Source: a virus
Lineage: Duplodnaviria > Caudoviricetes
DNA: 36,266 nt
Virus record (IMG/VR): IMGVR_UViG_3300047669_001621
Span: 1 to 36,266 of that record
Direction: 5' to 3' (one strand)
Within the stretch, counting starts at the first letter, position 1. Each line of letters opens with the position of its first letter. Below, piece by piece: positions 3,001 through 29,658 of this stretch. The notes beneath the pieces are model-generated. The model ran no database searches. It saw nothing but the letters and a program-made list of their open reading frames with translations, and was not told the origin of the DNA. A program made the position numbers and the translations under genes.

Positions 3001-3635
3001 GGGACGCCTTCGTAAACATCATGCACTCGGGGTGGTATATAAACTATGAAGACGGCAAGCGTCTCTTCGACGTCATGCTAGGGCAGGCCCCGGCACACTT
3101 GGCCCAGACAGTGAACAATACGCTATACCCAGTGCATGAAGGGGAGAGGCGGAGAGTGAAGAGGGTGGACGCATACAACTACATACGCTCAGCCGGCAGG
3201 GCGGCGGGGCTGCCGCTGGACAAGGGGGGAGTAACCTCCTCACCTACTCCGCTGACCGCTCGCATTAGGCAGCTGATGCTAACGGCATACGGAGATGACC
3301 CCGAGGAGTTTAACACCGTACTGCAGGGTGCCATGGAGGCTGCCGCCGTGGACTTTGATGGCGATCCCATGGACAGGATCATAAGATCATGGAAGGCTCG
3401 CGATCCACTGGACTTGTTCACCCATAAGCTGGACGAGGCGGAGATGGCGCTACTACTCTCTCACATGACATCCCGAGGCAGGGAGAATGTAATGGACTTG
3501 ATCCGACTGCACGATAAGTATCTCAGGTATCTCGAACCTAACCCTAAGAGACGCGGTGGTGGCGGAAGCTCAATGAGGTTCAGTCAGCCCGACTACTCTA
3601 GCCAAGCAACAAGACTAAAAATGATGGGACTATGA
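3..3635 (+). CDS. Very large virion-associated (internal/ejection-type) protein, 5'-truncated
   Basis: Frame is open from base 3 to the ATG at 102, so the gene starts before the window. >1200 aa, helical, with Gly/Ala-rich hydrophobic segments near the C-terminus, just before lysis-like genes. Function inferred from size and position only. Confidence 0.6.
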   Translation, partial: GILKTLHPRERELHRRLGVGYNFNASPGEKYFIMEKTKEGWAAREAFFSLAATDENRKDIAEAKWWNKAYLAEQAHQGKQDEPFNKVIADILVGLNKAVVHREYQTIHMNVLDRNLSTLEQRWRAMGQSGVQVSRMIAQFRRIQTQHKNESLKLAGIWDGAFSEATLASGMSRDIFKEMVYDTGIYWIENMPEHAADPDTLYRQVFGEIQELHRSMGKTASPELEKTLRKLWEATEACNTFEDNIATANNVLVEDPSVQWSNPLTGKRENLMRRRIKYGRVTVPRMLRGEVLSTINSIMREAGWKDDAVWAELGRLGATTVETDAAFQGIVALAEGIMPDMIKRVFLDPLLNKPGDPIFTSSLTRGTKVRQPIPQDEIASVWNESKGNLGVLIRELYLNQDNPTEELNQFAERFVKRLRNVYEMAAAIAGKVDTDPLNPNGRHPHRMMDARTNTIFPREWLQYDTYTKVDAGIHIAKLAAVAAFGRDSSTLSAVSNNAKSEVRLNKGSVGEYTTDPIYKSLTTDKERKSFLVARVGKEGMKRAMQVERNVEEVTDLQTDMRNLFMAPGGGFKDMRPVEEAIGFNASLILRTPKSGLWSILSGMDYTQRLGFGSMAAKTSGKFIYRSIQEAFGSIFGSDGLGWLNLRANETSMVMNDLRGMPGQHDLTYRQLMSNNGVKGAGSGAIKFFRGADGLLDRSIKGYFGKHKDAGASGYTPFTPFSPFSWLNNIFGKAIAGSMMDNWRYVMRRAIRLAEKNPAVMTDPNFKITLGNLGLKNGLLGGNERALEYMSDAWAERTGESLLDFVQRVHERVTSGKEMFSKGDYLTMYQMSMDDINLEGGIGSTPISYRTNGILRAASPLLRWATAKSNAVHKSVQTQEGRYTINSVLKGIAGISAVTMPIGIAASLLMDEYDEEILGKKSNLREVDPVNLFPGFAMYGMLTNRDGQGLGILERLARAGNTYGLGMEAIYGMLAWTDPSQGQRSLGIDRVLMYSQLSNFRDAFVNIMHSGWYINYEDGKRLFDVMLGQAPAHLAQTVNNTLYPVHEGERRRVKRVDAYNYIRSAGRAAGLPLDKGGVTSSPTPLTARIRQLMLTAYGDDPEEFNTVLQGAMEAAAVDFDGDPMDRIIRSWKARDPLDLFTHKLDEAEMALLLSHMTSRGRENVMDLIRLHDKYLRYLEPNPKRRGGGGSSMRFSQPDYSSQATRLKMMGL

Positions 3636-9337: not shown

Positions 9338-9652
9338 TCAATCTTCATCCCATGCCAGCTTCTCCCCCGCCTTGAGCGGTGTGCTTTCAGGTACCCTATC
9401 CCAAGCTTGATCCACGTACTGCATGATCCACGTCCCCGTCTTGAGCGAAGCCTTAACTGCCTCGCGCTTCCCCTCGGCGGTGACGTCATCGAAGTCCGCA
9501 AAGGCTTGGTCGTCGTTAAGCATATCCCTAAACCCGTTCACGGTTTCATTTAAGAGATACATGGCCCGCGACTTACCTAGCGTTAAGCCCATGGCGACGG
9601 CCTCTATGTCTTTGTCCTGTATTTTATTTCCCTTTTTATTTTTCTTAGGCAT
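9338..9652 (-). CDS. Hypothetical protein (104 aa)
   Basis: ATG 9652 (MPKKNKK) overlaps the recombinase stop by 8 nt. Confidence 0.7.
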   Translation of the reverse strand: MPKKNKKGNKIQDKDIEAVAMGLTLGKSRAMYLLNETVNGFRDMLNDDQAFADFDDVTAEGKREAVKASLKTGTWIMQYVDQAWDRVPESTPLKAGEKLAWDED

Positions 9653-10544
9653 GATTATATATTTCAGTTGTTCCTGTTGATGTGTGTGCCACAAGCTTCC
9701 CTATGTCCTCCAACCCAACGCCAGCGGCCTTGAGCCTCGTGACGAATGAATGCCTTAAGCAATGAAATGATAATACCCTTCCATTGATCGTCGGGATTTT
9801 CTTAAGCATTCTCTTATAGTACTGGGGGAGATAGGATCGGGTGGATGGAGTTGATATAAGTCTCCGTTCTTCGGGCCACACATAGTCGGGGTCGTCCCCG
9901 AAGTCCAGACCATTGAACAGCTTAACCAATTCACCTCCTCCCAACATGTCGTGATCTACGGGCAAGGCAACCCTGGCATGCTGCTTATCTCCTGCCTTCG
10001 CCGTCCATACCACGAGGTGGTTGGGGACGGAGACGATGCTGTCCCACTCAAGGGACGCGCAGTCGGACAGCCTTAGCCCGGTGTAGTATGACAAGGTGGT
10101 CGCGAACTTGAAGAACTCAAGGTACGTCGGCGGCACGGGGGCCTTATGCAGAACATCAATGCCCTGACACGTAAGCTTGTACTCTTCGAGGGAGAACGGT
10201 TTCTTCTTCTTCGGCTCCTTCTGCTTGAGTGTTAGGTTTTTCATATTAACTCTAAGCTTTGCGGCTACATTCCCTTTGCAATGCCCCCTATCTTTGGCGA
10301 GGCTAAGGAATGAATTGACTGCCGACAGTCGGAACCTCCGCTGCCCCAGTCCCACCCCGTCTTCCGCATTGATATAGCAGCTCACCATCTCCGGCGTCAC
10401 GTCATTGAGGTCAATGGATTTCTTTGGCAGATACTTCTCGATCCACATATTGATGGCGCTGTTCTGGGAGGCCACCGTGTTCGCCGCCCGATTCTCCAAT
10501 GCCCAGTGAGTGTACTCGCAGGTCAAAAACTTCCAAGGTGTCAT
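9645..10544 (-). CDS. Tyrosine recombinase/integrase
   Basis: Full catalytic set: YTGLRLSD (R), TAKAG (K), FHCLRH (HxxR), VAHTS (H), EIYNH (Y); 299 aa. Confidence 0.93.
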   Translation of the reverse strand: MTPWKFLTCEYTHWALENRAANTVASQNSAINMWIEKYLPKKSIDLNDVTPEMVSCYINAEDGVGLGQRRFRLSAVNSFLSLAKDRGHCKGNVAAKLRVNMKNLTLKQKEPKKKKPFSLEEYKLTCQGIDVLHKAPVPPTYLEFFKFATTLSYYTGLRLSDCASLEWDSIVSVPNHLVVWTAKAGDKQHARVALPVDHDMLGGGELVKLFNGLDFGDDPDYVWPEERRLISTPSTRSYLPQYYKRMLKKIPTINGRVLSFHCLRHSFVTRLKAAGVGLEDIGKLVAHTSTGTTEIYNHA

Positions 10545-10810
10545 GCGAATTTTACGTCCGACACTTTGCCGACGCCGATGAGCCTACTCAGAACGCCTTC
10601 ATCCTTAGGTAGGTCTTTGTTTACACAAATCAATTGAGGTATAGCGGTGACTCCGTAGAGCGTGGCCGACTGCTGTCCGTCGCCCGTAGTTATATCCACT
10701 ACCTCAAGTTCTTTCTTATGCTTCACCGCCACCTTCTCGGCGACGGGTAGCATAACCTCACAAGCGCCGCACCATGTGGCTGTGAAATACATTATTGCTG
10801 TTTTGCTCAT
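10541..10810 (-). CDS. Thioredoxin-like protein
   Basis: YFTATWCGAC active site, VDI, YGVTAIPQLI cis-Pro motif. Confidence 0.9.
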   Translation of the reverse strand: MSKTAIMYFTATWCGACEVMLPVAEKVAVKHKKELEVVDITTGDGQQSATLYGVTAIPQLICVNKDLPKDEGVLSRLIGVGKVSDVKFA

Positions 10811-13332
10811 TATAATTTTGTTGGATTTTGGTTAGTTTCTTTCATCACTCCCGCAAGCGTGTTCCACTCAAGCTCACAAGATGACTCTGGTCTGGACTCA
10901 CCGTTCTCATCAAAGTTAATGATGTGGTCGGCTAGTATCTCCGATGCCTCCATTTGTTTATAGTCCCTATCAACCCGCTTGCCATGGAGACATAGCGTTG
11001 CGGCGTCCTGCTTAGTGGCAACCCTGTCGAAGATAGCCTCCTCGATTGTGTTCTCAAAAAGAATCACATGAATGTTGCATTCCTTCGGGGAATTCAGTCG
11101 ATGAACCCTTCCGAGTGCCTGATACAGGGAGCCGTATCCCCAGTCGAGCGATGCAACTATAAGGTTAGGGCAGTTCTCAAAGCTATAAGCCTGCGCGCAA
11201 TTGATACCCATTAGCAATATGGGGAATTCTTTTTTCTTGAACTGCGACGCCTGCATTGCGTGCTTCCCTCTCGTGCTGTCGATCCGCCCATACCTAATGC
11301 CGGCTTGATTTATTCTGCTCGCTATCTCATTGCCCTGCCCTGTCCTTGAGTATACCACGACGGTCTGCTCACCCTTGTCGATGTTCTCGTTGAGCATTTG
11401 CAGTATGGTTATGATCTTTGGATTGAAGTTGGATGTGCATATCTCCGAGTCCTCCTCCCTTAGCCCCGCGAACGTATCCCTTGGCGATGCACATATGGAA
11501 CGCAGTGCGTTGGTTTGCCGAAGGGCTGCCGTAAGCATGGCCCTCTGCTTCTCCTTCTTCTCCCTCTTGGGTAAATCTTTCGGTATAAATACCTTCCTGT
11601 TGAGGTACTTGGCGTACAACTGCATCTGCTCTTGCCCCATTGGCACCCTCACATCCTGCACATTGCACTTCACTAGGTCTGGGTTGCACTCCTCCTTACT
11701 AATGTAACCAAGGATTGGCTTTATAAGTTTAAGTAGCCTAGTCGGTGAAGAGATTACGGCAGAGTTAGAGCGTATCCTTCCACTCCAGTTGGGGTCCTCG
11801 CTTCTCCTTCTCCGCTCTTCAGTGGAGTCATACTCGACGGACATGAACTGATGCTCGAACGACCCGTACTCCGAGATAGCGTAGGGGAATGCGGCGTTCC
11901 GCTTGCCTCCCTTGTACCAATCCCGCACCGCAAGCCACCCAAGGATGGGGAAGATGTTGGTTATCTGGTTAGGAATAGGGGTAGCCGAGAGTGTATATCT
12001 AAACTCTGGCTGAAGCCTAAGTAACGCCCTAGTCTGCATTGACTTGAGTGACCTCATAAGGTGGGCTTCGTCTATGATTATCATATCAAACTGCGAGCCA
12101 CACAAGGTGGACAAGCTTGGCTTAGCTACGCAGACTATACCGTTCGCATCACATTCACCCAAGCCAAGGTGGTAAAGTCGATCACCCTCGCGATGCTTCT
12201 TCCTTATGGCGAGTCGCTTCCTGAACTGCTCTTCGCGCTTCACTGCATTCGCCTTCCTCCATGTTCCGGGAGCGTACTCCATTGCGTCATTCTTGAGAAA
12301 GGCAGACGGGTATGTGATGTATATCCCCGGAGGAAACACACCGTCCTCTCCCTCTGAGCGTGCCTTGTCGTAGTCCGACCGATTGAATAGCGTGCGAACA
12401 GGGTAGTACGGGCAGAACTTTTGTATCTCAGCTACCCACTGGGCTGGATCAAAGTTCCGCTTGTCTCCCATCTCATTCTCCACCGTACCCTTAGGGGCCA
12501 TGATCAGAATACGCTCAGCTTTCGCAAGCCAAGCTAGGGTCAATGCCCCAAGCGTCTTGCCTGTACCTACGTCGGCAGCAATACATCCATACTTCTTTAT
12601 GCCCATCCTTGCGTAGTAGTCCAGCTGTCCAGGGAAGTAAGTGAATCCAGACATGGCCTCGAATGCACGCATCTCCTCGATGTTGCTGTCATACTTTTCC
12701 TCACTGACCTCCCTGATCGTGTCAACATCCGGACGCTTGAAGTGTTCCCATAACTCCGCCTCTTGGTGTTGGTTGTCATGCGGCCCGGGCCTGTCCCTGA
12801 AGAAGTGGTACTCGTTGTTGTCGTCCACTATCCTTATGAATCTATCCACTCCTGTGAGTTCGCAAGTGTGTTCCGTTACTCGCATAGTCCCACTGTCCTC
12901 ATCATAGTAAGGCTTCTTCCTTGTGAACTTCTCAGTGAATGGAGTTGACCCCGTCCGAATGTCATAACCTCGCCCCGGAGTGAGGTTAAGTGACGACCCA
13001 TCCACGCACTCAAGCTTGCCCATCTCATCCGCATAAGCCACAAGTTCTTGATCCGTTGGCGGCCTAAGGGGTGCATTAAACTCATCCCCCTGCACCAGTG
13101 ATGCCACGATTGCTTCCTTCGCAAGTGGCTCAATTTGCACCTCACCCTCACTGCTCAACAGCAGGATGTCCCGCATCCCCTGCCTGCTTGCGGCTTCAGT
13201 TAGCAATGCGACAGGCGTCTCATCCCTCAGCTTTCTGAGCGTGTTAAGATGCTGCCACCTATTCAACGCCGACAGCCTACCCTCTGACACCGCAAGGGTG
13301 CCGTCCTTCCTGATTGATAAATCGTAACTCAT
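10810..13332 (-). CDS. SNF2-family SF2 helicase/translocase with N-terminal extension
   Basis: ADVGTGKT (I), IIIDEAH (II), LSATPIPN (III), NPKI, QALGRVHRL (VI), TIEEAI. Confidence 0.9.
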   Translation of the reverse strand: MSYDLSIRKDGTLAVSEGRLSALNRWQHLNTLRKLRDETPVALLTEAASRQGMRDILLLSSEGEVQIEPLAKEAIVASLVQGDEFNAPLRPPTDQELVAYADEMGKLECVDGSSLNLTPGRGYDIRTGSTPFTEKFTRKKPYYDEDSGTMRVTEHTCELTGVDRFIRIVDDNNEYHFFRDRPGPHDNQHQEAELWEHFKRPDVDTIREVSEEKYDSNIEEMRAFEAMSGFTYFPGQLDYYARMGIKKYGCIAADVGTGKTLGALTLAWLAKAERILIMAPKGTVENEMGDKRNFDPAQWVAEIQKFCPYYPVRTLFNRSDYDKARSEGEDGVFPPGIYITYPSAFLKNDAMEYAPGTWRKANAVKREEQFRKRLAIRKKHREGDRLYHLGLGECDANGIVCVAKPSLSTLCGSQFDMIIIDEAHLMRSLKSMQTRALLRLQPEFRYTLSATPIPNQITNIFPILGWLAVRDWYKGGKRNAAFPYAISEYGSFEHQFMSVEYDSTEERRRRSEDPNWSGRIRSNSAVISSPTRLLKLIKPILGYISKEECNPDLVKCNVQDVRVPMGQEQMQLYAKYLNRKVFIPKDLPKREKKEKQRAMLTAALRQTNALRSICASPRDTFAGLREEDSEICTSNFNPKIITILQMLNENIDKGEQTVVVYSRTGQGNEIASRINQAGIRYGRIDSTRGKHAMQASQFKKKEFPILLMGINCAQAYSFENCPNLIVASLDWGYGSLYQALGRVHRLNSPKECNIHVILFENTIEEAIFDRVATKQDAATLCLHGKRVDRDYKQMEASEILADHIINFDENGESRPESSCELEWNTLAGVMKETNQNPTKL

Positions 13333-13691
13333 TTATATCCTTTGTTGTACTCATCCCAGTTTTCCCCAAGGGCCTCGAAGCCCATGCCCCATATGTCATG
13401 GAGCAGGTGAACATACTCATCATAACCGTTCACCTCCTGCGCCTTGCTCTTGAAATTGCTATAGTCAAGCGTATCTACGATCTTGCTCATCCACTGATCG
13501 AACACATGGCGTGGAAGAATTGTCCTGTATTTGTAATCCCTATCCGGGGTAACCATAATGGGGTGTGTTGAACTCACTCTCTCCATAAGAAGAGTTAGGT
13601 GTTTCTTTTTTCTAGCTCTAACCTGAATCTTGTCAGCGTCCAGAGATGACTGGGTTGTGCTGAAGAAACCTTCTGGCGTTAGTATCCACAT
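13329..13691 (-). CDS. Conserved-looking phage hypothetical protein
   Basis: MWILT..GFFS, QVRAR, DY.YR, LDYSNFK pattern recalled from a widespread uncharacterised family; ATGA-coupled to SNF2. Confidence 0.75.
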   Translation of the reverse strand: MWILTPEGFFSTTQSSLDADKIQVRARKKKHLTLLMERVSSTHPIMVTPDRDYKYRTILPRHVFDQWMSKIVDTLDYSNFKSKAQEVNGYDEYVHLLHDIWGMGFEALGENWDEYNKGYK

Positions 13692-13692
13692 G

Positions 13693-14334
13693 TTACCCTT
13701 CCTCCCATCTGTGCTTGGTCCAGCTATGCGCCTTCCTCTCCGCGCCTACCAGTTGTGTGGGGTACTTTGATCCTGCGTCTACGCCAACCCATCCCTCATA
13801 GAACTCGGCATCCCATTCCTTGTTCATTCTCTGGGCGACACCATCCCAGTACTTAGCCTCCACCTTGTCCTCGAAGTTGAATATAGTAGGTACGTATACG
13901 TGATTGTCCTTAGGTTTTTCATCTACCTTGTGTACGCTTGGCAGTAACACCCTTAGTACGGACTGCCTATCCTCATACCTCCCCGGTATTGACGGCATGT
14001 CCAGTACTATCAAGGTTCCCCTACCTATGCCGTGCCTCCTCGACAGTCCCTCGCAATCAAGCCACTCGGAAAACGAGTCGGCAACTGGAGTCAGCTGCCT
14101 TCTTATCAGCGACAAGGCGTCGGTAAACTCATGCTCTATCGACAAGCGTTCGAGCTGTCTGTTATACATAACCCCAGTCACCGTGTTGAGGAACACTCGC
14201 CACCCGTTGTACTTCGGCGTGAATATAGTATTACGTTTGTCCGTCATCTCCCACACCTTACCCAAGGGCTTGCCCCCGGTGGTGGGGCGAGCGGGATAGG
14301 TGGGGGGGAAGGTGTCAATGGTCGCGGTGTTCAT
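13693..14334 (-). CDS. ATP-dependent ligase-like nucleotidyltransferase (adenylation domain only, 213 aa)
   Basis: Motif I TPKYNGWR, Ia YNRQ, III WLDCEG, IIIa LIVLDM, IV YEGWV, V WTKHR. Start taken as ATG 14334. Confidence 0.75.
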   Translation of the reverse strand: MNTATIDTFPPTYPARPTTGGKPLGKVWEMTDKRNTIFTPKYNGWRVFLNTVTGVMYNRQLERLSIEHEFTDALSLIRRQLTPVADSFSEWLDCEGLSRRHGIGRGTLIVLDMPSIPGRYEDRQSVLRVLLPSVHKVDEKPKDNHVYVPTIFNFEDKVEAKYWDGVAQRMNKEWDAEFYEGWVGVDAGSKYPTQLVGAERKAHSWTKHRWEEG

Positions 14335-14653
14335 GTTTTCGTTCAGCTTCAGCTTCTTCGCCAAGCTTCTTATCGTAGTTAAGTATCTCTCCCATGCCCT
14401 CGTCGTTGTAGTGGTCCTCAATCGCCTGACGGACAAGCGCTTCATCGGGTGGGTTCATTAGTATTTCAGTGGTGACAGACTCAATGACCACATCACTTAT
14501 GTCGATGGTGGGGCCAGGGTCATGCGTTAGGTTGACCTGCTCTCCGTAGTCATAGGAGAAGGAGTTGTCCTGCACGTCATACTCAATCAACCCCTCAACC
14601 TCATGCAACTCTCCGCCCTCATCCTCGTACTCGAACTCGAACGGGTATGTCAT
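14315..14653 (-). CDS. Acidic hypothetical protein
   Basis: ATGA-coupled; very Asp/Glu-rich. Confidence 0.75.
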   Translation of the reverse strand: MTYPFEFEYEDEGGELHEVEGLIEYDVQDNSFSYDYGEQVNLTHDPGPTIDISDVVIESVTTEILMNPPDEALVRQAIEDHYNDEGMGEILNYDKKLGEEAEAERKHEHRDH

Positions 14654-15270
14654 CGTACTATTACAGACACGGGCATGTGCTGATTAACTTGTAGGTTTTG
14701 CCTCGGCGTGAGCATCTCATACCTTCCGGCGGTGAACACGGGGGTAAACTTAAGAACCTTCCGAAGGTTATGAGCTTGGTGGTACTTATTAAGCACCGCT
14801 ATCATGTCCATGAGAAACTCATTCCTGATCGACGCCGGTATCTCTGCGGTGTCCATCTTGATTTCCACATGCTCCTCGAAGCACTTGTCATACTTGCTTT
14901 TCGTCGTGTCCTTTAGCACCCTCACCTTAGCCTCACCCTCGGGCAGGGTTTGTGTTCCGTCTTGGAGTACGCACCTTGTCCAGTTGTTATTATGATACAC
15001 GGTAACTCTATCCTGATTGCTCGACCCCATTGCCCTGAAAGTTTTGGAGGCTTCCGCAACCCCCGCATTTCTGTTAAACAATTCCTCAAGGTATGCCTCC
15101 TTGATCTCCGCTTCGGGCGGAGCCTTGAGCTGTTGCCCCTCTTTTTCTATGCCCTTGCCTTGGCAAAATGCATCGACCCTCTCTGCTGCTATCGTGTTGA
15201 GCAGTGGTTTGTCCTGCTTACCCTTGACGGGCTTCTTGCCCCCGCCACCCTCTAATTTAGTTAAGTCCAT
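14650..15270 (-). CDS. Hypothetical protein (206 aa)
   Basis: AGGA upstream of ATG; coupled within the operon. Confidence 0.8.
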   Translation of the reverse strand: MDLTKLEGGGGKKPVKGKQDKPLLNTIAAERVDAFCQGKGIEKEGQQLKAPPEAEIKEAYLEELFNRNAGVAEASKTFRAMGSSNQDRVTVYHNNNWTRCVLQDGTQTLPEGEAKVRVLKDTTKSKYDKCFEEHVEIKMDTAEIPASIRNEFLMDMIAVLNKYHQAHNLRKVLKFTPVFTAGRYEMLTPRQNLQVNQHMPVSVIVR

Positions 15271-15484
15271 ATGTATCCTGTGCCTCCGTCTGATTGTTTG
15301 GTTTGTCGTTTGTAATATAATCTTCCTCTTCGAGGTATCCCTTCATGGAATCACACATATCCCATTCACTTGCGGCAAAGTGTGCCGCCTTCCCGTCACC
15401 CCTTATGGCGATCTTAGGATAGAAAACTTTTCCTATCCTAAGGAACCACTTGAACAGCCATGGCCCAAATATTTTGAAGATCAT
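15257..15484 (-). CDS. Hypothetical protein
   Basis: ATG 15484 (MIFKIFGPW) in ATGA overlap with the upstream stop. Confidence 0.6.
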   Translation of the reverse strand: MIFKIFGPWLFKWFLRIGKVFYPKIAIRGDGKAAHFAASEWDMCDSMKGYLEEEDYITNDKPNNQTEAQDTYGLN

Positions 15485-16398
15485 TCTTCTAATTCGACCA
15501 AGCCTCGAGTCTTCAGCATGTCCAGTATGAAGTCCGCCGACGAGGCGACGGTCGCCCAAGGTTTCAAGTCATCCCCTCCATGTATCCTGTCGAAGACAAA
15601 GTCTCCATCAGTAGCCCCCACTATAGAGCAAGGAACCCCATATCCCCCGGAGTAGTCATCCGTTTCCTCTTGTTCTTTTGCCGCAAAGACAAGCCTCCTA
15701 AGGATGGATGGGTGAATGATCATAAAGGAACAACGATCCCCATCCAAGTGTTCGTCCGATCTCTTGACCGGAATCTCATACTGATTGATGGTGCCGTCGT
15801 TCTCCGTAGTGGACATGAGCGTCAGCTCAACCGAGTACCCGCAGTTGCTTAGTGCCTCAAGCAATCCGACTACGGCGGCACCCCGATGAATGAACACCTC
15901 CTTCTCAACAGAACAACTGACCGCGACATTGACCAAGACCCTAACGATCTTACCCCCCATACCCTCGGTGTCCTCTGGCTGAAACTCAATCCAGTGTTCG
16001 GGGTCTCCCTCCACGAATGCCCCTATGTCTATTTCATCCCCGCTATCTGCGTACCGTGGATGGTATGCCTTTATCTTGGATGCCACTATCCTGTTCATCT
16101 TTTTACGTACCTCCTCCACATGGCCAAGCCCCTCCGGCCACCCATCGGCAGCCAGCTCTTGGCACTCTTCATATGAACGGGTGCCAGCCCAACCATCATC
16201 CCCTTCCTTCCTGCGTGAATGCTTTTCGGTGGGTCTTTCGGAGAAGTAATCAACTAAGTCCGGCTGATTCTCACAGAACTCTAGGAAATCCTTGAAGTCC
16301 TTCGATGACCTGCGTACCAACTGGTATTCCTCACCATCTCTCTCGAGATTAGTGACCTCTCTTCGACACTGCTCGTGTCCTGCTTTGTAAAATGCCAT
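15481..16398 (-). CDS. vWA-like partner of MoxR-type ATPase
   Basis: GDEIDIGAFVEGDPEHW, VRVLVNVAVSCS (degenerate MIDAS), RGAAV..L.EAL...GYSVEL, HPSILRR, GYGVP. Confidence 0.65.
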   Translation of the reverse strand: MAFYKAGHEQCRREVTNLERDGEEYQLVRRSSKDFKDFLEFCENQPDLVDYFSERPTEKHSRRKEGDDGWAGTRSYEECQELAADGWPEGLGHVEEVRKKMNRIVASKIKAYHPRYADSGDEIDIGAFVEGDPEHWIEFQPEDTEGMGGKIVRVLVNVAVSCSVEKEVFIHRGAAVVGLLEALSNCGYSVELTLMSTTENDGTINQYEIPVKRSDEHLDGDRCSFMIIHPSILRRLVFAAKEQEETDDYSGGYGVPCSIVGATDGDFVFDRIHGGDDLKPWATVASSADFILDMLKTRGLVELEE

Positions 16399-16402
16399 TG
16401 TT

Positions 16403-17014
16403 TTAATTAAATAATTTGAATAATTGCTCCATCTCAGCGGGGGTATACTTCGTCTGTTTTCTCATACGGGATACGTCGCCCCTTGCTAAGGTCTTCAGTA
16501 CACTATTAGCGTCCACCCTCGTGACGCCATACGACCTTGTTATTGTTATCATAAATGATACCTCTAGCGGCTCAGCCTCCACCTGCACGGTGAACCCGTC
16601 CACCTCCAGCCCCCATAGAGCCATCTCTTTGGGCTTATACTTACCGAACGGAACGTGGCACACTTGCGCTAGTGAATACATATCGGCATGTGTAACAACA
16701 TTCTCTTCGGCCGTAACTTCCTCGATGCTAAGGATGTCCACGCTTGGAAAGTATGACCAATCATCTGATTGCTCTTCCCAGTCCGGCCTTACGTCCCGCA
16801 CTCCATGCTTGGGTGGCTCGCATACGCTTTGATACCCTTCGGCCCATTGCTCAGCTTCACTGGCGAGGTCGCTCTCGAAGGACTTCATATCAATCTCCTT
16901 CCCCTTCCCTTTCTTTGGTACCTCGTCGTCGTCTACGGTATATATCACAGTCCCGTCACACTCCGCCGTGGCGTGGTATCTTACTTGAAACTGTCGCTGT
17001 TTCTTATTCTTCAT
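16403..17014 (-). CDS. Hypothetical protein (203 aa)
   Basis: Long ORF filling the space between the AAA and vWA-like genes. Confidence 0.75.
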   Translation of the reverse strand: MKNKKQRQFQVRYHATAECDGTVIYTVDDDEVPKKGKGKEIDMKSFESDLASEAEQWAEGYQSVCEPPKHGVRDVRPDWEEQSDDWSYFPSVDILSIEEVTAEENVVTHADMYSLAQVCHVPFGKYKPKEMALWGLEVDGFTVQVEAEPLEVSFMITITRSYGVTRVDANSVLKTLARGDVSRMRKQTKYTPAEMEQLFKLFN

Positions 17015-17016
17015 GT

Positions 17017-18432
17017 TTATATATTTGATTCGTTAACAATCTTAGCGCGAGTGGCGGAATCCATTCCCTTCCATACGCACATATTCGATACGTGAGTGAA
17101 CCCAAGGCCAGCTCTCAGTAGCTTTATGCCATTGATGCTTGCCCTTGGTGAGACCACATGCCTAACGGCAAGCGAGTCTACCGCATTACGAATGCGTCCG
17201 ACCCACTCAACCCACTCCTGGTCTGTCCGTCCATTCCCCGCATCTAGCTTAATCTCCGCGCCATCCCTTTCGACGCCGCATATTTTCCCCTCCCACTTCT
17301 CGTCATAGTCATACTCGACAACGGCAAACCTATCTATGGTTGCCGCATCCAGTTGATTTCTTCCCACATAAGTAGCGTTAGCACCCAAGCCATACGTGTT
17401 GGCAAGGAAGAGAGGGACAAAGTTCTCATGCCTTGGGGTCATCCCGTCCTGTCCGGGGAAGTGGCTCTCGGCATTGGCGAACCCTTGATTGAGTAACGTC
17501 AATGATCCAGCTGAGCCTGCGTCCGCCTCATCACAAGCATAGAGCATACCCTTACTGAAGCACTGGTAAAATACCGACTCTATGTACCTGCCATTGGCAT
17601 CCATGTACCCAAGGATGTCCGACTTGGAGGTCTGAGGCCCAATGGATTGGATGCGATAGTCAACGCTGTTGTCCTCCCACGCCTCCTCACACACCTCGGC
17701 TAGTGCCTTGATGGTGGATGTCTTGCCCCACCCGGCGGGACCAACGATCATGGTTGGTATCCTGTTGGTTACGGCTGCTGCAACAAGGGGAAACTTATAG
17801 TGCAGGGGTTGGTCGCCTTCCCATTTCTTGCCAGCGGGAAGGATGTTTATGTCGAACGACTGGAAACTTCCACCGCTTGGGCCATGGATGTTATCGTCAG
17901 TCATGTGCGACTTGATCTGCGTCCAGCACTTCTCAATTAGATTTTCTTGGTCGGCCAGCTTATCCGACAGCCTAGTAATAACCTTCCCGTGATCATGGCT
18001 GTTCGCACTGGCAAGGCTAGCAAACCCTTCCTTCATTATACGCAACACTTCCATTGCGCTATCGGCCTCAGCCTCCTTGGCTACATCCTCAATGCGAACC
18101 TCGGGGCCTTCGTATTTGATTTCTTCGGGCAACTCTTCGGGCAACTTCTCTTCTATGGGAAGATTAACCTCTTCGTGTTCACCCGGAACAAAGGGATGGC
18201 TTATGTTATCATGCCACTTAAACTTAAGGCTCCCATCTTGGATGACCTTAATCCATTGCTTAAAGTTTTCGGCTGCCAGTTCCTCATTGCCCTCCTCGGA
18301 CTTGTATTCATTGAGGTTTGCATAGCCCTTTTCCTTGAGCCACTCGTTAAATATTTCCTTGGTCGTTGAGGAGGCAGAGCCTAATGCTCTTGCCAGCTCC
18401 ACGAATTCTTTAATTAGTAATGTCTGTACCAT
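17017..18432 (-). CDS. MoxR/CobS-like AAA+ ATPase with acidic N-terminal extension
   Basis: Walker A GPAGWGKT, Walker B YACDEAD, ANTYGLGA..YVGRNQLDAATIDRF, VSPRA sensor 2. Confidence 0.9.
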   Translation of the reverse strand: MVQTLLIKEFVELARALGSASSTTKEIFNEWLKEKGYANLNEYKSEEGNEELAAENFKQWIKVIQDGSLKFKWHDNISHPFVPGEHEEVNLPIEEKLPEELPEEIKYEGPEVRIEDVAKEAEADSAMEVLRIMKEGFASLASANSHDHGKVITRLSDKLADQENLIEKCWTQIKSHMTDDNIHGPSGGSFQSFDINILPAGKKWEGDQPLHYKFPLVAAAVTNRIPTMIVGPAGWGKTSTIKALAEVCEEAWEDNSVDYRIQSIGPQTSKSDILGYMDANGRYIESVFYQCFSKGMLYACDEADAGSAGSLTLLNQGFANAESHFPGQDGMTPRHENFVPLFLANTYGLGANATYVGRNQLDAATIDRFAVVEYDYDEKWEGKICGVERDGAEIKLDAGNGRTDQEWVEWVGRIRNAVDSLAVRHVVSPRASINGIKLLRAGLGFTHVSNMCVWKGMDSATRAKIVNESNI

Positions 18433-23868: not shown

Positions 23869-24047
23869 TAAAGTTAAACTGGTCAGGCGCGGACGTGGAC
23901 ATTGCCGTGGAATGCGGTGACGACATAGCGACTTGTGACCTTCTTGAGGTGATCGAGGTGTTCATTCGGGTCATGGATCGCTCTCCGGTGGGGGAACTTG
24001 AGTTCATTGACGGTGCATGGAGCTTACCGGAGGGAGAATCGCATTGA
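23859..24047 (+). CDS. Hypothetical acidic protein
   Basis: ATG 23859 overlaps upstream end; TTGA overlap downstream. Confidence 0.6.
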   Translation: MGVIKLNWSGADVDIAVECGDDIATCDLLEVIEVFIRVMDRSPVGELEFIDGAWSLPEGESH

Positions 24048-24517
24048 AGATCAAGCTATCCGAAGCTGAGTTGGAGCTTGCTAAGTACATGGCGACGGCA
24101 CGAACCGCGCAATCCCGCAAGGATGGCGTAATCAATCGCCGCATATCGGACGAATCGGACTTCGACATTGAGTACATCGGCATGTGCGGGGAGCTTGCGG
24201 TGGCACAAGCCCTCAACGTGTACCCTGATTTAAGTATAGCGTCCAGGAGTGGAGGGTATGATTTGCTTTCCTCGAAGGGAAAGCGCATGGAAGTGAAGAC
24301 TACCAAGCACCATCGTGGACGATTGGTGGCTCGCCCTACGGCGAAAGTCGAAGACAGTGACTTCTACGTGTTAGTAACGGGTCAACCGCCCAACATGACC
24401 ATACGGGGCTACATACCCACCAAGGAGTTCCTCACGGAGGGCAACCTAGGGAAACTATCCCCTAAGTATCCCGAGGCATTCCTATACCCGCAGGAGGGGC
24501 TTACGCCATGGAGATAG
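24044..24517 (+). CDS. PD-(D/E)xK nuclease-fold protein
   Basis: G..GELAV helix, GGYD, MEVKT, DFYVLV, IRGYI; TTG start with GGAG upstream. Confidence 0.7.
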   Translation: MKIKLSEAELELAKYMATARTAQSRKDGVINRRISDESDFDIEYIGMCGELAVAQALNVYPDLSIASRSGGYDLLSSKGKRMEVKTTKHHRGRLVARPTAKVEDSDFYVLVTGQPPNMTIRGYIPTKEFLTEGNLGKLSPKYPEAFLYPQEGLTPWR

Positions 24518-24951
24518 CTGAACCCGCCAAGAATAAGAGGATGGGGACTCTTTATGAAAATATTTTCATCTGCGAAGCCCTGAAGAGGAACCTTCAGCCC
24601 CACGTGCCGGTCGGAGACTACTTGCCCCATGACTTGATCGTATACACTCCGTCGGGAATCTGCGTGAGAGTTCAAATCAAAGGGACCTCTTGCCGCCACC
24701 CGCACAGAAGTAGCAGCCGGTACAAAATTCAAAGCATGGAGGGGAGCAAGAAGCTGAAGCTCCAGACCACCTCCGCTGATATACTCGCCGCCTACGTGGC
24801 TCCTTGGGATTACTGGTACCTGATACCCGTGAGTTCCCTGGCAAGTCCTTCGGTCTGGATGTATCCCGGCAAAGAAAAGGGTCGAGGGCAGTATGAAAAG
24901 TATAGGAATGGATGGGAAGTATTTAGCGACGAAGAGTACCATGTTCCTTGA
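24508..24951 (+). CDS. PD-(D/E)xK endonuclease, I-Ssp6803I/PDDEXK_5 homing-endonuclease-like
   Basis: GTLYE, P.GDYLPHDLIV, RVQIKG, ADILAAY, WYLIP. Confidence 0.8.
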   Translation: MEIAEPAKNKRMGTLYENIFICEALKRNLQPHVPVGDYLPHDLIVYTPSGICVRVQIKGTSCRHPHRSSSRYKIQSMEGSKKLKLQTTSADILAAYVAPWDYWYLIPVSSLASPSVWMYPGKEKGRGQYEKYRNGWEVFSDEEYHVP

Positions 24952-25224: not shown

Positions 25225-25473
25225 TCAGAAGGGGACGTCTTCGTTAAGCTCGTCTTTTCCTGCGGAGGTTGCTCCGGCTGTTTTTTCTCTTGGCTCCTCA
25301 AAGGAGATGGAGAGATATTTCTTTCCTTGTTTTGACTCATTGATCCATGCTGCTAGTCGCAGTTCCTTGCCTTCAATTAGTCCTAGCCCTGTATAGTCAG
25401 GTCCTTTCTCGTTGGTTTTTTCCTCTTCCTTGAAGAGGGCTGCGGTGTTTGGTTTTCTTTCGTATTGTGCCAT
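25225..25473 (-). CDS. Single-stranded DNA-binding protein-like (DUF736-type)
   Basis: LFK...K..KGPDYTG, LAAWINES..GKKYLSI, acidic tail ending EDVPF. Confidence 0.75.
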   Translation of the reverse strand: MAQYERKPNTAALFKEEEKTNEKGPDYTGLGLIEGKELRLAAWINESKQGKKYLSISFEEPREKTAGATSAGKDELNEDVPF

Positions 25474-26744
25474 TAGCTTAATCGTGGTTTGGGTTGAGTA
25501 GCGTAGCTTTCATATCGTGCGAATGTGCGGCAGAAGGTCAAGGGTATTTTACCTGTCCCTCCATTGCGGTTCTTCACCACGTGAGCTTCCATTGTTTCCG
25601 TATTCTTAAATGCTCCATCCTCCATCCTCTTCAGCATGATGATCTGGTCGGCATCCTGCTCGATGGAACCCGAGTCCTTGAGGTGCCTCATCTGGGGGGT
25701 CGAGTCCGATTCCGATTCTCTGTTCTGCTGAGACAGGGCGAGTACGGGAGAGTCAAGCTTCTTGGCCAACATCTGCATCTCTCTCGATATGTTCGATATT
25801 CTTTCGTAGCTATTTTGACCCTCGCCACCCATTATTCCCAAGTAGTCCACGATCAGAAGATCAAGCCCGCCGCGAGACTTCTCGGAAACAGCTTTGGCCG
25901 CAAGGTATGAGACGGTGATTCCGCTGGACTGATCTATCATCAGCGGCCACTTCTTGATCTCCTCCGCTGCCTCCCTGAGCTTCTGCCTGTCCCCGGGGTT
26001 GTAGTGGTTGGCTCGGTTTATGATGGGAACTCTGGCTTCTGCGTGGATCAGTCGCTTTACAAGCTGATGCTTGCTCATCTCCAGACTGGAGAACAATACG
26101 CGCTTACCTGCTTTTGCTATGCGTGCCGCCATACTTAAGGCTAGGGCAGTCTTGCCCTGCGATGGCCTGCCTGCGAGAACTGACATCTCTCCCGGCTTAA
26201 ATCCGCCTAGCACTCGATCTAAGTCCACGAAGCCGGTGGGTAGGTACTCGATTTTCCCTTCGTCCATCAGTATGCAATGATCGAACACGTCGTCCACTTC
26301 GCTGCCCACTGGCTCGAATGACGATCCTTGATCGGATAGGGCGTCTGATATTTGCTTGGCCGCTCCCGTCAAAACCTCCTTGGGGTCTCCTCCGCCCGAT
26401 ATGCCGTCCTTCATGGAATTAGAGACAGCCTGAGCCTGCCTCCTTGTCCAAGCCTTGAGAACGCTCTCCGCATAGTACCCCACTTGGGCCGAGGTCTCGG
26501 TGGCCTGAGACCACTGGAGAACTTCCCCTATATCCAGATTGAGCTTGTCACTGATAGTAAACTCATCGGGAGCTTCCGTGAGGGTGGCGAATAAAGTCCA
26601 CGCCCTGCCTTTATCTGAACAAGAGAAATGTTGAGGTTGAATGAATCGGCTTGCCTCTGTGTAGGCGTAGGGCCAAGTGGTGTCGCGGATACAGCAACTT
26701 AGAACTCCTCTCTCAAGGCTTTCGTCGGGGATGTTAGATTTCAT
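25473..26744 (-). CDS. dnaB: Replicative DnaB-like helicase
   Basis: TGFVDLD, AGRPSQGKT, SLEMS, IVDYLG, LSQQNR, LKDSGSIEQDAD, KNRNG. Confidence 0.95.
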   Translation of the reverse strand: MKSNIPDESLERGVLSCCIRDTTWPYAYTEASRFIQPQHFSCSDKGRAWTLFATLTEAPDEFTISDKLNLDIGEVLQWSQATETSAQVGYYAESVLKAWTRRQAQAVSNSMKDGISGGGDPKEVLTGAAKQISDALSDQGSSFEPVGSEVDDVFDHCILMDEGKIEYLPTGFVDLDRVLGGFKPGEMSVLAGRPSQGKTALALSMAARIAKAGKRVLFSSLEMSKHQLVKRLIHAEARVPIINRANHYNPGDRQKLREAAEEIKKWPLMIDQSSGITVSYLAAKAVSEKSRGGLDLLIVDYLGIMGGEGQNSYERISNISREMQMLAKKLDSPVLALSQQNRESESDSTPQMRHLKDSGSIEQDADQIIMLKRMEDGAFKNTETMEAHVVKNRNGGTGKIPLTFCRTFARYESYATQPKPRLS

Positions 26745-26801: not shown

Positions 26802-27554
26802 TCATGCATACTCCTCGACCGTCCCTGACCATGCACTTGGAGAATACTCTACCTCGTCCTCCCACCTCTTGTGGTTGAGGAAGGTAACCGCCATGGGGAT
26901 GTATCTTCCCTTCTCCTTTTTCCAGTCGGCGGTCTCCTTGAGCTTCTCCACGGATGCCACGATGGAAGCCGTACTGGACTCAAGCCCGTCGTACACCCAA
27001 GATATGAATGACTCTTGCTTGTTCTGCCTTACTCCATTCCTAGGAGGGTAGGTTTCCCAAAATTTTTGAAAGCCTGCGTAATCCTTATAGGTCAAGGATT
27101 TATTCTTGATGGCTCGCTTCACTCCATCCTTAGTATTATATTCCTTATATATTTCATCTTCAACGCACGTCCGTGCGCGGGGGGACGCCTTTTTGTCTTT
27201 CTTCTTTGAAACAGCCTCCTTCATGTTGGGCGTATCTCCTTGATCACTAACCATCCTACGGGAATAAATGACCCCCTCTTCATCTATGGAATAAACCCCT
27301 GCATCCTCTAGTTCTTGCATCCAGTGAAGGACTTCATCTTCGGGGTCGTTCTGTCCAACCAACCTGCATATCTGTCCTTTATGAAGGGCTTTATTATTAA
27401 CTATCAAGTACCCCCTTTTTTCCGACTCCCACATGTAGCACAGCATCCTCAGCCACAAGCCCTGCGCGCATAGCGAGCAGACGTTCAGCGCGGGGTCGGC
27501 CAGCCAGTCCCGTGGGTAGAACAGCATGGCGGGTTTCTTACCTTTAGTTCCCAT
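26802..27554 (-). CDS. Phage replication initiator protein
   Basis: N-terminal PAMLFYPRDWLAD..CS..AQGLW..MLCYMW winged-helix type; C-terminal F.KFW..YP..K..YIP..TFLN..RWEDE; directly upstream of dnaB. Confidence 0.8.
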   Translation of the reverse strand: MGTKGKKPAMLFYPRDWLADPALNVCSLCAQGLWLRMLCYMWESEKRGYLIVNNKALHKGQICRLVGQNDPEDEVLHWMQELEDAGVYSIDEEGVIYSRRMVSDQGDTPNMKEAVSKKKDKKASPRARTCVEDEIYKEYNTKDGVKRAIKNKSLTYKDYAGFQKFWETYPPRNGVRQNKQESFISWVYDGLESSTASIVASVEKLKETADWKKEKGRYIPMAVTFLNHKRWEDEVEYSPSAWSGTVEEYA

Positions 27555-27882
27555 TTCTCTTAAGTGTTATTATCGTCTCTTCCTCTTTGTACTTGGAGAC
27601 TTTCTCTTGTGTGATTTCGATTTCGATGACTTCCGGAGTATCCTCTGGGATAAGGCCAGCATAGCGTATCTGATCGACGATATCCTTAACGTAGAGGTTG
27701 TCTGGGTCGAGTAGGTTGACCCTACGGCTTCTAATGCCAACAAGATACTCTGGCCGCATTCCTTCTTCGCCTTGACCTTTGCCCACCGATTTAACCCTAA
27801 CACCACATTTAGGCTTGGCACTCGGTAGTCCTTTAGGGTCAGAGCCACCGACTGGCCTTTTGTTAGGAGATGGTTCACTCAA
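27544..27882 (-). CDS. RusA-like Holliday junction resolvase, catalytic C-terminal part
   Basis: RSRRVNLLDPDNLYVKDIVDQIRYAGLIPEDT matches RusA DxDN..K..D....G...DD; the N-terminal 40 aa in this frame look disordered. Confidence 0.75.
   Translation of the reverse strand: MSEPSPNKRPVGGSDPKGLPSAKPKCGVRVKSVGKGQGEEGMRPEYLVGIRSRRVNLLDPDNLYVKDIVDQIRYAGLIPEDTPEVIEIEITQEKVSKYKEEETIITLKRNGN
27570..27878 (-). CDS. Overlapping frame carrying a RusA-like N-terminal part
   Basis: LTLKDYRVPSLN...NRWAKVKAKKE resembles the RusA N-terminal strand, PSxN motif and basic helix; GTG follows the upstream stop directly. Confidence 0.55.
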   Translation of the reverse strand: MNHLLTKGQSVALTLKDYRVPSLNVVLGLNRWAKVKAKKECGQSILLALEAVGSTYSTQTTSTLRISSIRYAMLALSQRILRKSSKSKSHKRKSPSTKRKRR

Positions 27883-28961
27883 CTTTTATCCTTTATGATT
27901 GATGGGGACTTGTCCTTGGCGACGATAATCGACTCCAGAATCTTTTCAACCTCCAACCTCGAGCCTTTCTTCTTGCCCGTGATGGATTCGTAAAGCTTCA
28001 CTATTTCCGGTATCGTCAAACGAGTGCAGGCAAGCAGGTCGTCCTCGGAGAAATCAAACTCTTTTCTGAGTAGCTCAACCGCATCCTTGGCGTTCTTGAT
28101 CGACTTGACCTTCCCTGATGATCTCAGTTTGTAATTGGGCAGAAACGATTCGTCTTCGGAGAGCTTCCCTTTTGCCCAGCTCGTCAGGCGAGTCGCCCAC
28201 TTGCTAGCTATTTGTGCTACAGATAGGAGCCTCTCTATTTCAAGGGGTTCCTCCAGCTTTTCTATATCGACCCCGACTACCGTGTCCATGACGTTTCTGA
28301 CTTCGGGGCAATGGCTCAATCCCTTGCACCACTTGCAGGCGTTGGGGTGCGGCCTTCGCTGAGCTGTTGGAGCCATGCTCTCCTTCAGCATGGAAAGCAT
28401 AGCTGCCTTGACTTCCTTTAGGTCTCGCTTGGCGAGCATGTCGATGGAGTACGCCTCGAGGCCGAGCGGCTGAACCAGAGACACGTGTACGGAGTTTAGG
28501 TTGTGCTTTTCCGCCAGCAGTACGGCATATGCCCTGAGCTGTAGGTTGTCATAGGCATTGACTTGGTATCCGCTCAGCGTCTTGTAGTCCACTACGAGGC
28601 CGGACTTGTCCGTCCATTCGGCATAGTCGAACTTACCGCTCATCACTTTGGCTCCGGCTTCATTGAGAAGCCAGTACCTTTCCTCCTTCCTTATAGTGGT
28701 CTCCTTGGCAGCGTCCATGCCGGAGTCGGCCCTAGCCTTCTCAAGCAGTTGCCTAGCCTTGCGAACCACGAACCTTCGCTCCGGCTCAAGCGACTCGACA
28801 ACCAAATCCTCATCTGCAATCAAGTCATGCCTGATGGTTCCCTCGGTTGCTTCCGGTGACTCGACGTCCGGGAATTTGGACTCGAAGGCCCAACTCCCCG
28901 GACAGAGCTGAATTCGTCCGATGCCTGAAGCCGATGGGCAGCTTTGCCTTTCGTCGATCAT
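27879..28961 (-). CDS. Cas4-like PD-(D/E)xK exonuclease (DUF2800-type)
   Basis: SASG..R...CPGS, EGTIRH, SGKFD, VVDYKT, NLQLRAYA, CKWC.....CP; start taken at ATG 28961. Confidence 0.85.
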   Translation of the reverse strand: MIDERQSCPSASGIGRIQLCPGSWAFESKFPDVESPEATEGTIRHDLIADEDLVVESLEPERRFVVRKARQLLEKARADSGMDAAKETTIRKEERYWLLNEAGAKVMSGKFDYAEWTDKSGLVVDYKTLSGYQVNAYDNLQLRAYAVLLAEKHNLNSVHVSLVQPLGLEAYSIDMLAKRDLKEVKAAMLSMLKESMAPTAQRRPHPNACKWCKGLSHCPEVRNVMDTVVGVDIEKLEEPLEIERLLSVAQIASKWATRLTSWAKGKLSEDESFLPNYKLRSSGKVKSIKNAKDAVELLRKEFDFSEDDLLACTRLTIPEIVKLYESITGKKKGSRLEVEKILESIIVAKDKSPSIIKDKS

Positions 28962-29025
28962 AGCGTCACGATGATGAGCAGTATGACCATTCCGACTCCG
29001 ACCATAAGGAAGCAATCATCCCAAC

Positions 29026-29658
29026 TCACGCCTTCCTCCAGTTTTGCAAGTAGGACGTCATGTCCGGATAATCGGCGAACTTGTCCCTATGCTCCCAGAG
29101 GGTTTCAAGTTGAGCTTGAGTTAAGTCCGATAGCAGTATCCCCTCCCAGTTGCCAATCGGAACCTTGCCCCCGAGCGGAAGCTCGACAACAGGCTTCTTA
29201 CTGACAGGAACCAGACTCCGGCGCAGGTGGTGGAGAGAGTCAACTACTTCGCTCTGGGTCTGGGTTTTCCGCGTAGGTATGTCTTCTCCTGCGTATATGT
29301 AAAGCCCTAGTCCAAAAAGAGCGATGCACTTGACTAAGCATCTCATCTTGGCGTCGTTGACATCCCGAGCATTGGGTCCGGTGATGGCGCTGTTCTTGTA
29401 GTCCATCACGGGTAGCCAGCAGGTTCTGGTAAGTCCAGCTACCGTTAGCGAGCATCTCACTTCGCCGGTTCCATCCGGCATCGGCCAGAACTCGGAGCCA
29501 TCCTCCGCCTTTTCAAACTCAAAAGTAGAGTCGGGGAAGTTATCGCACAACGTCTTCCATGCCCACGCCCAAGAGAGGTAGGACAAATTGCCCTTCTTCT
29601 CTATGTGGTCCGAGCAATCAATGGACGCTAATTTGTTCCACGCTTCTTTCATTGTCAT
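29026..29658 (-). CDS. sak: Sak (Rad52-like, DUF1071) single-strand annealing protein
   Basis: IEKKGNLSYLSWAWAW, WLPVMDYKN, DVNDAKMRCLVKCIALFGLGLYIYAGEDIP. Confidence 0.92.
   Translation of the reverse strand: MTMKEAWNKLASIDCSDHIEKKGNLSYLSWAWAWKTLCDNFPDSTFEFEKAEDGSEFWPMPDGTGEVRCSLTVAGLTRTCWLPVMDYKNSAITGPNARDVNDAKMRCLVKCIALFGLGLYIYAGEDIPTRKTQTQSEVVDSLHHLRRSLVPVSKKPVVELPLGGKVPIGNWEGILLSDLTQAQLETLWEHRDKFADYPDMTSYLQNWRKA

Follow-up and report, generated by a model that had tools for sequence, protein, structure and literature searches.

Two reading frames of one strand, overlapping almost completely within 339 bases, divide the fold of a RusA-type resolvase between them in a phage replication operon. 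Frame A encodes the N-terminal half and frame B the catalytic half, and to judge from the sequences the two chains, each carrying an overprinted extension, are likely to assemble into one RusA-type resolvase. Both frames seem to have their own start and to be under selection at the protein level along nearly the whole stretch. A broader proposal is that a widespread phage lineage has remade an essential nuclease as an obligate A2B2 enzyme from one doubly read gene of 340 bases, with the halves of the ancestral fold split, codons shared, extensions arising de novo, a functional helix and basic tail in A, and one chain nearly invisible to gene callers. We hold this with less assurance, while thinking it on balance probable.

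The split locus and its operon

The window, by which we mean the whole stretch of DNA analysed, comprises an entire virus record of 36,266 bases, estimated as ~50% complete. The sequence is found mostly in seawater runs, and includes terminase, portal and integrase genes. Five of the nine genome records that contain a relative are named Verrucomicrobia. The split locus sits in a phage recombination-replication operon, which runs leftward in the order Sak annealing protein, DUF2800 exonuclease, split locus, replication initiator and DnaB-like helicase. The position following Sak and the exonuclease and preceding the initiator and helicase is that expected for a junction resolvase. The features are as follows.

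29026-29658, minus strand: Sak annealing protein, preceding the exonuclease
27879..29015, minus strand: DUF2800 / PD-(D/E)XK exonuclease, upstream of the split locus
27878..27894, minus strand: putative ribosome-binding site (AAAGGA) common to two adjacent starts (TTG; GTG), either start being a candidate for use
27544..27882, minus strand: frame B open reading frame, 112 aa from a TTG; catalytic RusA half, preceded by a hydrophilic linker that is overprinted
27570..27878, minus strand: frame A open reading frame, 102 aa, GTG start; RusA N-terminal half and overprinted C-terminal tail
27726..27854, minus strand: A residues 9-51, aligned by hhalign as strand 1, PSLN turn and helix 1
27573..27725, minus strand: A tail, residues 52-102; Ser/Thr linker, predicted helix 2 with L74, and Lys/Arg-rich end (net +15), lying over the catalytic half of B
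27556..27765, minus strand: B residues 40-109, assigned by profile alignment and model as strand 2, DxDN loop, helix 2 and strands 3-4
27726..27765 (~40 nt), minus strand: base-sharing stretch, the end of helix 1 in A and strand 2 in B, both frames apparently under selection
26802..27554, minus strand: replication initiator, downstream, its ATG lying inside the last codons of B
25473-26744, minus strand: DnaB-like helicase, after the initiator

The original prediction had described two open frames on the same strand with starts coupled to the upstream stop, and this is what the sequence contains. The frames are open over 27882-27544 and 27878-27570 (minus strand); the TGA of the exonuclease (27881-27879) overlaps the TTG of B, and the GTG of A follows directly after the stop. 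The sequence AAAGGA (27894-27889) has a spacing of 6 nt to the TTG and of 10 nt to the GTG, with the same calculated anti-Shine-Dalgarno pairing of -5.4 kcal/mol for both. The TTG is a weak start, and Shine-Dalgarno scores are poor in many of the relatives. A start codon is found upstream of the overlap in 80 of 81 loci for B and in 81/81 for A, noting that open frames often hold starts by chance. At the other end the stop of B is overlapped by the ATG of the next gene in 23 of the 50 loci in which an ATG could be placed. A promoter-like site at 27949-27922 (9/12 match) is too weak for use.

There is an internal ATG in frame B at M42 (27759-27757, minus strand), which most members of the close marine clade retain but the wider family does not, and which is annotated as the start of the database proteins P0024, P0027 and P0028 (71-73 aa). 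It could yield a shorter B of 71 aa comprising the catalytic half only, or might merely follow from the Glu-Cys codons of A. The exonuclease and frame A share a reading frame in the window (27881-27876, minus strand) and in loci L002, L007, L009, L011, L013 and L014, A beginning at or just past the exonuclease stop; the two are not in frame in L001, L010 and L017. Given a shared frame, read-through of the stop would fuse the exonuclease to A. In the window the initiator downstream has the frame of A as well.

Elsewhere in the window, an open reading frame of 1177 aa at 102-3635 (plus strand) is open at the window start and has no Pfam match. An integrase, an SNF2-type helicase, a DUF7192 protein and a CobS-like AAA ATPase (phrog_249) form one leftward block at 9645-18432 (minus strand). 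On the strand opposite to the replication operon and facing its end, at 24017-24951 (plus strand), are a DUF5843-like gene and a PD-(D/E)XK endonuclease.

The split is found in all related loci

Over the stretch the contigs of all four DNA runs analysed have substitutions and no indel, these being assembled contigs rather than raw reads. Run X3 covers it as a single piece, and may be the source DNA itself. Runs X5 and X6 (the latter a 95-99% variant) each reach every one of the 30 bins, though in pieces, and run X4 covers 20 of the 30. The contigs of four RNA runs provide one piece of 189 nt over 27528-27716 with no gap, a cover too sparse to demonstrate transcription or to rule out slippage. 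No joints across the locus were present in the contigs of the four DNA and four RNA runs, with that sparse cover of the latter.

We fetched 188 loci (with repeats), which together with the window gave 88 that were distinct at <90% DNA identity. All 88 are split in the same way and none is fused, so that single-frame close homologues, which the original prediction had named as a refuting outcome, are absent from this set and the split with its two open frames is conserved. Since the B cores range from 82% down to 20% identity with that of the window while the layout is kept, the split is old and stable. By pattern, 85/88 loci have PSxN in the +1 frame, and the other three have a variant or shifted motif in the same frame; one locus also gave a stray in-frame match to the PSxN pattern.

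Both frames are open far more often than expected. B is open upstream in 88/88 loci, compared with 25.6 expected from synonymous shuffles, and A is open to codon +40 in 81/87, compared with 11.3. The third frame is open in only 4/88 upstream and 1/88 downstream. The loci are related, so that p-values overstate their independence; when thinned to <50% identity, B remains open in 16/16 and A in 15/16. For the window's own codons, the probability that B would be open under the N-terminal half of A is 0.13, and that A would be open under the C-terminal half of B is 0.002.

In none of 177 database proteins of the B type is the A half clearly part of the chain, one being borderline (E 0.01); of the 59 single-frame controls, 51 have it. 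The database proteins found number 28 for B and only two for A. A profile of 27 close B proteins finds 1364 clusters (50% identity) at E <= 0.001, some of them presumably single-frame RusA-like proteins; the best 150 of these clusters were examined. By tblastn neither A nor the C-terminal half of B had a genuine relative among 50,697 annotated phages; matches to Klebsiella phages (E 0.1-0.8) were taken as chance. Five matches were found in 401 genomes of the phylum of genome G002, comprising G002 itself, the split locus L198 and three weak matches near E 1e-3. One contig of 105,714 bases has the same locus three times (L023, L024 and L025) ~39.8 kb apart; a circular phage genome was probably assembled here as a concatemer, and the three were counted once.

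Frame B carries the catalytic half

For comparison we assembled single-frame RusA-like proteins using a separate pattern. This gave 120 loci, of which 65 have an in-frame PxxN motif and 59 of these are distinct and form the profile; 49 loci without PxxN by pattern and six that were unparsed were excluded. Residues 40-109 of B correspond to positions 48-118 of this profile (hhalign, probability 97%, E 6e-10). When the B profile is aligned with E. coli RusA, residues D59, D61, N62, K66 and D81 fall opposite D70, D72, N73, K76 and D91 of Escherichia coli RusA, at a probability of only 21% and E 0.001. The E. coli residues are reported as the catalytic set (PMC1636454). Most of the DNA loci (set A4) were chosen by a pattern on the catalytic residues of B, making conservation there circular; the set of 150 proteins selected by profile (set A2) has the same catalytic residues, with D61, K66 and D81 invariant and D59 and N62 at least 90% conserved. 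In the Arg-rich loop, corresponding to R66-R69 of RusA, R54 and R56 are at least 90% conserved in set A4; position 56 is partly fixed by the pattern and is N in the window, and the position of E. coli R69 is L58 in the window's B.

The predicted structure of B has low confidence and no secondary structure over residues 1-43, followed by strand-helix-strand-strand over 46-109 at a pLDDT of ~90. It aligns with residues 52-118 of 1q8r with Z 4.5 and rmsd 3.3 over 66 residues, matching three strands and one helix, a score tied with unrelated folds; in a Foldseek search of the PDB, RusA stands at rank 47 with E 1.1. Matches to viral structures include phage proteins annotated as RusA. Of the 150 B-type proteins 117 match phrog_34 (RusA-like) and 101 match phrog_1682 (E <= 0.01). 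The window's A or B alone has no RusA match in Pfam or PHROGs at threshold, and sequence search of the PDB with sets A1, A2 and A4 found nothing relevant. The assignment of both halves to RusA, as first proposed, is supported by the phrog_34 and phrog_1682 matches of B, the catalytic alignment, the 1q8r fold alignment and the single-frame profile.

Many B-type proteins, among P0032-P0180 and the distant loci, start with a short recurrent motif, FPxA[ST] or W[TS]..[DEQ], found in 42 of 149 as counted without a chance control. The window's clade does not have it.

Frame A carries the N-terminal half and a selected tail

Residues 9-51 of A correspond to positions 2-46 of the single-frame profile (hhalign, probability 95%, E 3e-8), and 80 of 85 A sequences match positions ~4-41. 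Conserved residues in the 85 aligned loci are P21, S22, N24, W32, R34, K38 and L49. Residues 13-16 of RusA, which match the PSxN turn of A, are reported to contact DNA (PMC1636454). As a single sequence A had no match to E. coli RusA, only one of the 85 A sequences matched phrog_1682, and that weakly, and the ESM Atlas had no usable match for A. When A is predicted alone, strand 1 is unformed and there is a helix over residues 64-91.

The tail of A, lying beyond the RusA half, is preserved to a definite point. Between codons -8 and +40 we find 16 stops in frame A compared with 228 expected, and between +41 and +49 there are 95 compared with 78, the chance rate once more; thus A has been kept open up to a sharp boundary. 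The tail also appears to be under selection for its amino acids, as a helix with a Leu face that is followed by an Arg-rich segment. At wobble positions of B where the choice is neutral for stops, Leu is favoured in frame A at +16 (44/64, compared with ~12 expected, p 3e-23) and at +20 (p 2e-9), and Arg at +23 to +32, a bias that fits the predicted helix of 64-91 and a basic end after it. In 12 close loci, fourfold sites of B over the catalytic region have a divergence of 0.11, compared with 0.54 in the next gene; for stop-neutral sites the values are 0.20 and 0.50, on only 8 and 14 sites.

The median net charge is +10 for the A tail and -1 for the B core. The helix half of A and the B core together have +4, equal to that of the single-frame relatives, and so the tail adds charge rather than merely restoring it. 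A ends before codon +40 in 6/87 loci, showing that the tail is not essential in some lineages. In L020 and L198 (G254) frame A stops just past the DxDN region and there is no tail, making these natural tail deletions.

The two halves share codons

Compared with the single-chain RusA-like proteins, the A and B halves appear to be complementary with no gap, and the elements on either side of the division are encoded by the same bases. The original prediction had noted that the end of the A helix overlaps the first strand of the other frame, and L49 of A (27734-27732) indeed lies within strand 2 of B, Y46-I50 (27747-27733). At codon -9 relative to D59 A has Leu in 76/79 loci, while B has Val or Ile in 65/79; in B the wobble base at that Leu codon is T in 38 of 38 fourfold codons. 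B has Val or Ile at codon -11 in 73/79. Positions -11 and -9 of B were not fixed by the pattern used to find the loci.

The distance from PSxN to the first Asp of DxDN is 110 nt (36.7 codons) in 79/88 loci, and the PxxN-to-DxDN span is 53-58 residues in 52 of the 65 single-frame relatives that have the motif. The needed pieces overlap by ~40 nt, and therefore no single shift between the frames could give the whole fold.

A probable two-chain resolvase and the alternatives

In the model that we favour, ribosomes terminating on the exonuclease would re-initiate either at the TTG of B or at the GTG of A four bases further on, using one Shine-Dalgarno site. Strand 1 and helix 1 would come from chain A; chain B would provide the active site together with helix 2 and strands 2-4. 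Because the functional unit of RusA is a dimer, an A2B2 complex would be expected, which might then cut the four-way junctions left by recombination by Sak and the exonuclease. The tail of A, an amphipathic helix followed by an Arg/Lys-rich segment, probably lies against the core and contributes positive charge to the binding of DNA, and the overprinted N-terminal part of B is likely to be a flexible leader.

The original prediction had left open a choice between non-canonical recoding and a two-chain enzyme made from dual-coded DNA. Its assignment of the RusA halves and its two-chain option stand, the latter well supported by the layout and by the apparent selection on both frames, while the option of -1 recoding fares badly. 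Were a -1 frameshift from A to B to occur near the Lys-Ala-Lys-Lys codons (~27770-27760), there would be one chain with a short helix 1, and the open flanks would serve otherwise. In its favour, the N-terminal half does precede the C-terminal one, and a step from A to B is of the commonly seen -1 kind. Moreover A_AAG or A_AAA occurs at codons -22, -20 and -19 in 19, 24 and 14 of the 88 loci, though Lys codons there are required by A; the single A_AAG of the window is at Lys34 of A, where the tetramer is found in only 2/88. A canonical X_XXY_YYZ heptamer, which the original prediction did not see, occurs in only 13/88 loci, scattered, and there is none in the window between PSLN and DPDN; nor is there a stable downstream RNA structure (27780-27660, z 0.13, the window alone being folded). 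The product of a single shift would have just 37 residues between the motifs in place of 53-58, and would lose either the F/L-S-A-L end of the A helix, with its conserved Leu, or strand 2 of B. It would also leave unexplained why both frames stay open past the junction. All this makes a -1 fusion improbable. Still less credible in our opinion is an unusual recoding to one full chain, by a backward hop of ~40 nt or by two shifts (B to A to B). This would generate the complete single-chain fold from the same DNA, and an N-terminal motif recurs in the B leader in 27/81 loci (counted without a chance control). Yet no conserved take-off or landing signal was seen, the contigs of the DNA and sparse RNA runs contain no joints, and the tail of A would have no need to stay open. 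We know of no precedent for a backward hop.

The alternative to which we give the most weight, while considering it unlikely, is that both proteins are made without forming an obligate enzyme, B being a nuclease (possibly a weak one) or having some other partner, and A a regulator, an inhibitor or a separate DNA-binding protein in which motifs like those of RusA have persisted. B alone is predicted confidently over 46-109 with all the catalytic residues, and A has its long selected tail with no RusA counterpart. Against this, A keeps exactly what B lacks, including the PSxN turn, in a fixed register in 79/88 loci. An assembly error or a recent pseudogene can hardly be entertained, given four DNA runs free of indels and the same layout in every locus over so wide a range of identity.

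Significance and relation to known systems

At this locus nature has split a single enzyme fold between two frames of one piece of DNA, and the case has been sampled many times over. How it arose is a matter for speculation, but a change of frame between helix 1 and strand 2, rescue by a second start, and deletions sliding strand 2 under helix 1 could have led to it. The A tail arose off-frame of the catalytic domain and now appears to be under amino-acid selection, so that gain of function by overprinted sequence is directly testable, and two genes of ~100 codons are of a convenient size for expression, assay and crystallization. There is also a blind spot in annotation. Given 28 database proteins for B and two for A, and the 1364 clusters found with the B profile, many hypothetical proteins that resemble half of RusA probably have an uncalled partner.

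RusA proteins have a four-stranded sheet and two helices, and carry out Mg2+-dependent symmetric cleavage of four-way junctions. E. coli RusA (prophage DLP12; PDB 1Q8R, 2H8E; Pfam PF05866) shares with B the catalytic set, and its residues 52-118 align with the B model at the tied score given above. It is a single chain of 120 aa that forms a homodimer, whereas here two frames share out the fold, with the division falling after helix 1; to judge from the sequences, no single polypeptide at the split loci would constitute a RusA. The window's chains each have an extension of 40-50 aa with no counterpart in the E. coli protein, and its B keeps the Arg-rich loop only in part. The single-frame members of phrog_34 and phrog_1682 have the same PxxN-helix and DxDN-K-D motifs as the split loci, most having 53-58 residues between them in a single frame. 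Phage genes with a programmed -1 frameshift, such as those of tail assembly chaperones, likewise comprise two open reading frames of the same strand one base apart in N-to-C order. Unlike these, the split loci have no conserved slippery site, both frames are open throughout, and the needed pieces overlap.

In the literature, mostly open-access main texts, we found no description of a split or overlapping RusA or of a dual-coded phage enzyme. One paper names 'RusA/RuvC' among genes containing frameshifts; the only resolvase title seen in the range of references that it cites is that of a paper on E. coli ruvC (PMC10885494). The dual-frame, two-chain layout is known, and what is apparently undescribed is such a layout for RusA. 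The precedent for one enzyme made as two chains from overlapping frames is M.EcoHK31I, a heterodimeric DNA methyltransferase that needs both its chains for activity and whose alpha gene also encodes the beta chain, in a different frame (PMC2836561). There a small chain with motif IX is nested within a larger gene, whereas here the chains are of equal size, overlap almost completely and share a start region. Unlike the methyltransferase, the split RusA has two essential structural elements sharing codons, in a layout that recurs across a large phage family.
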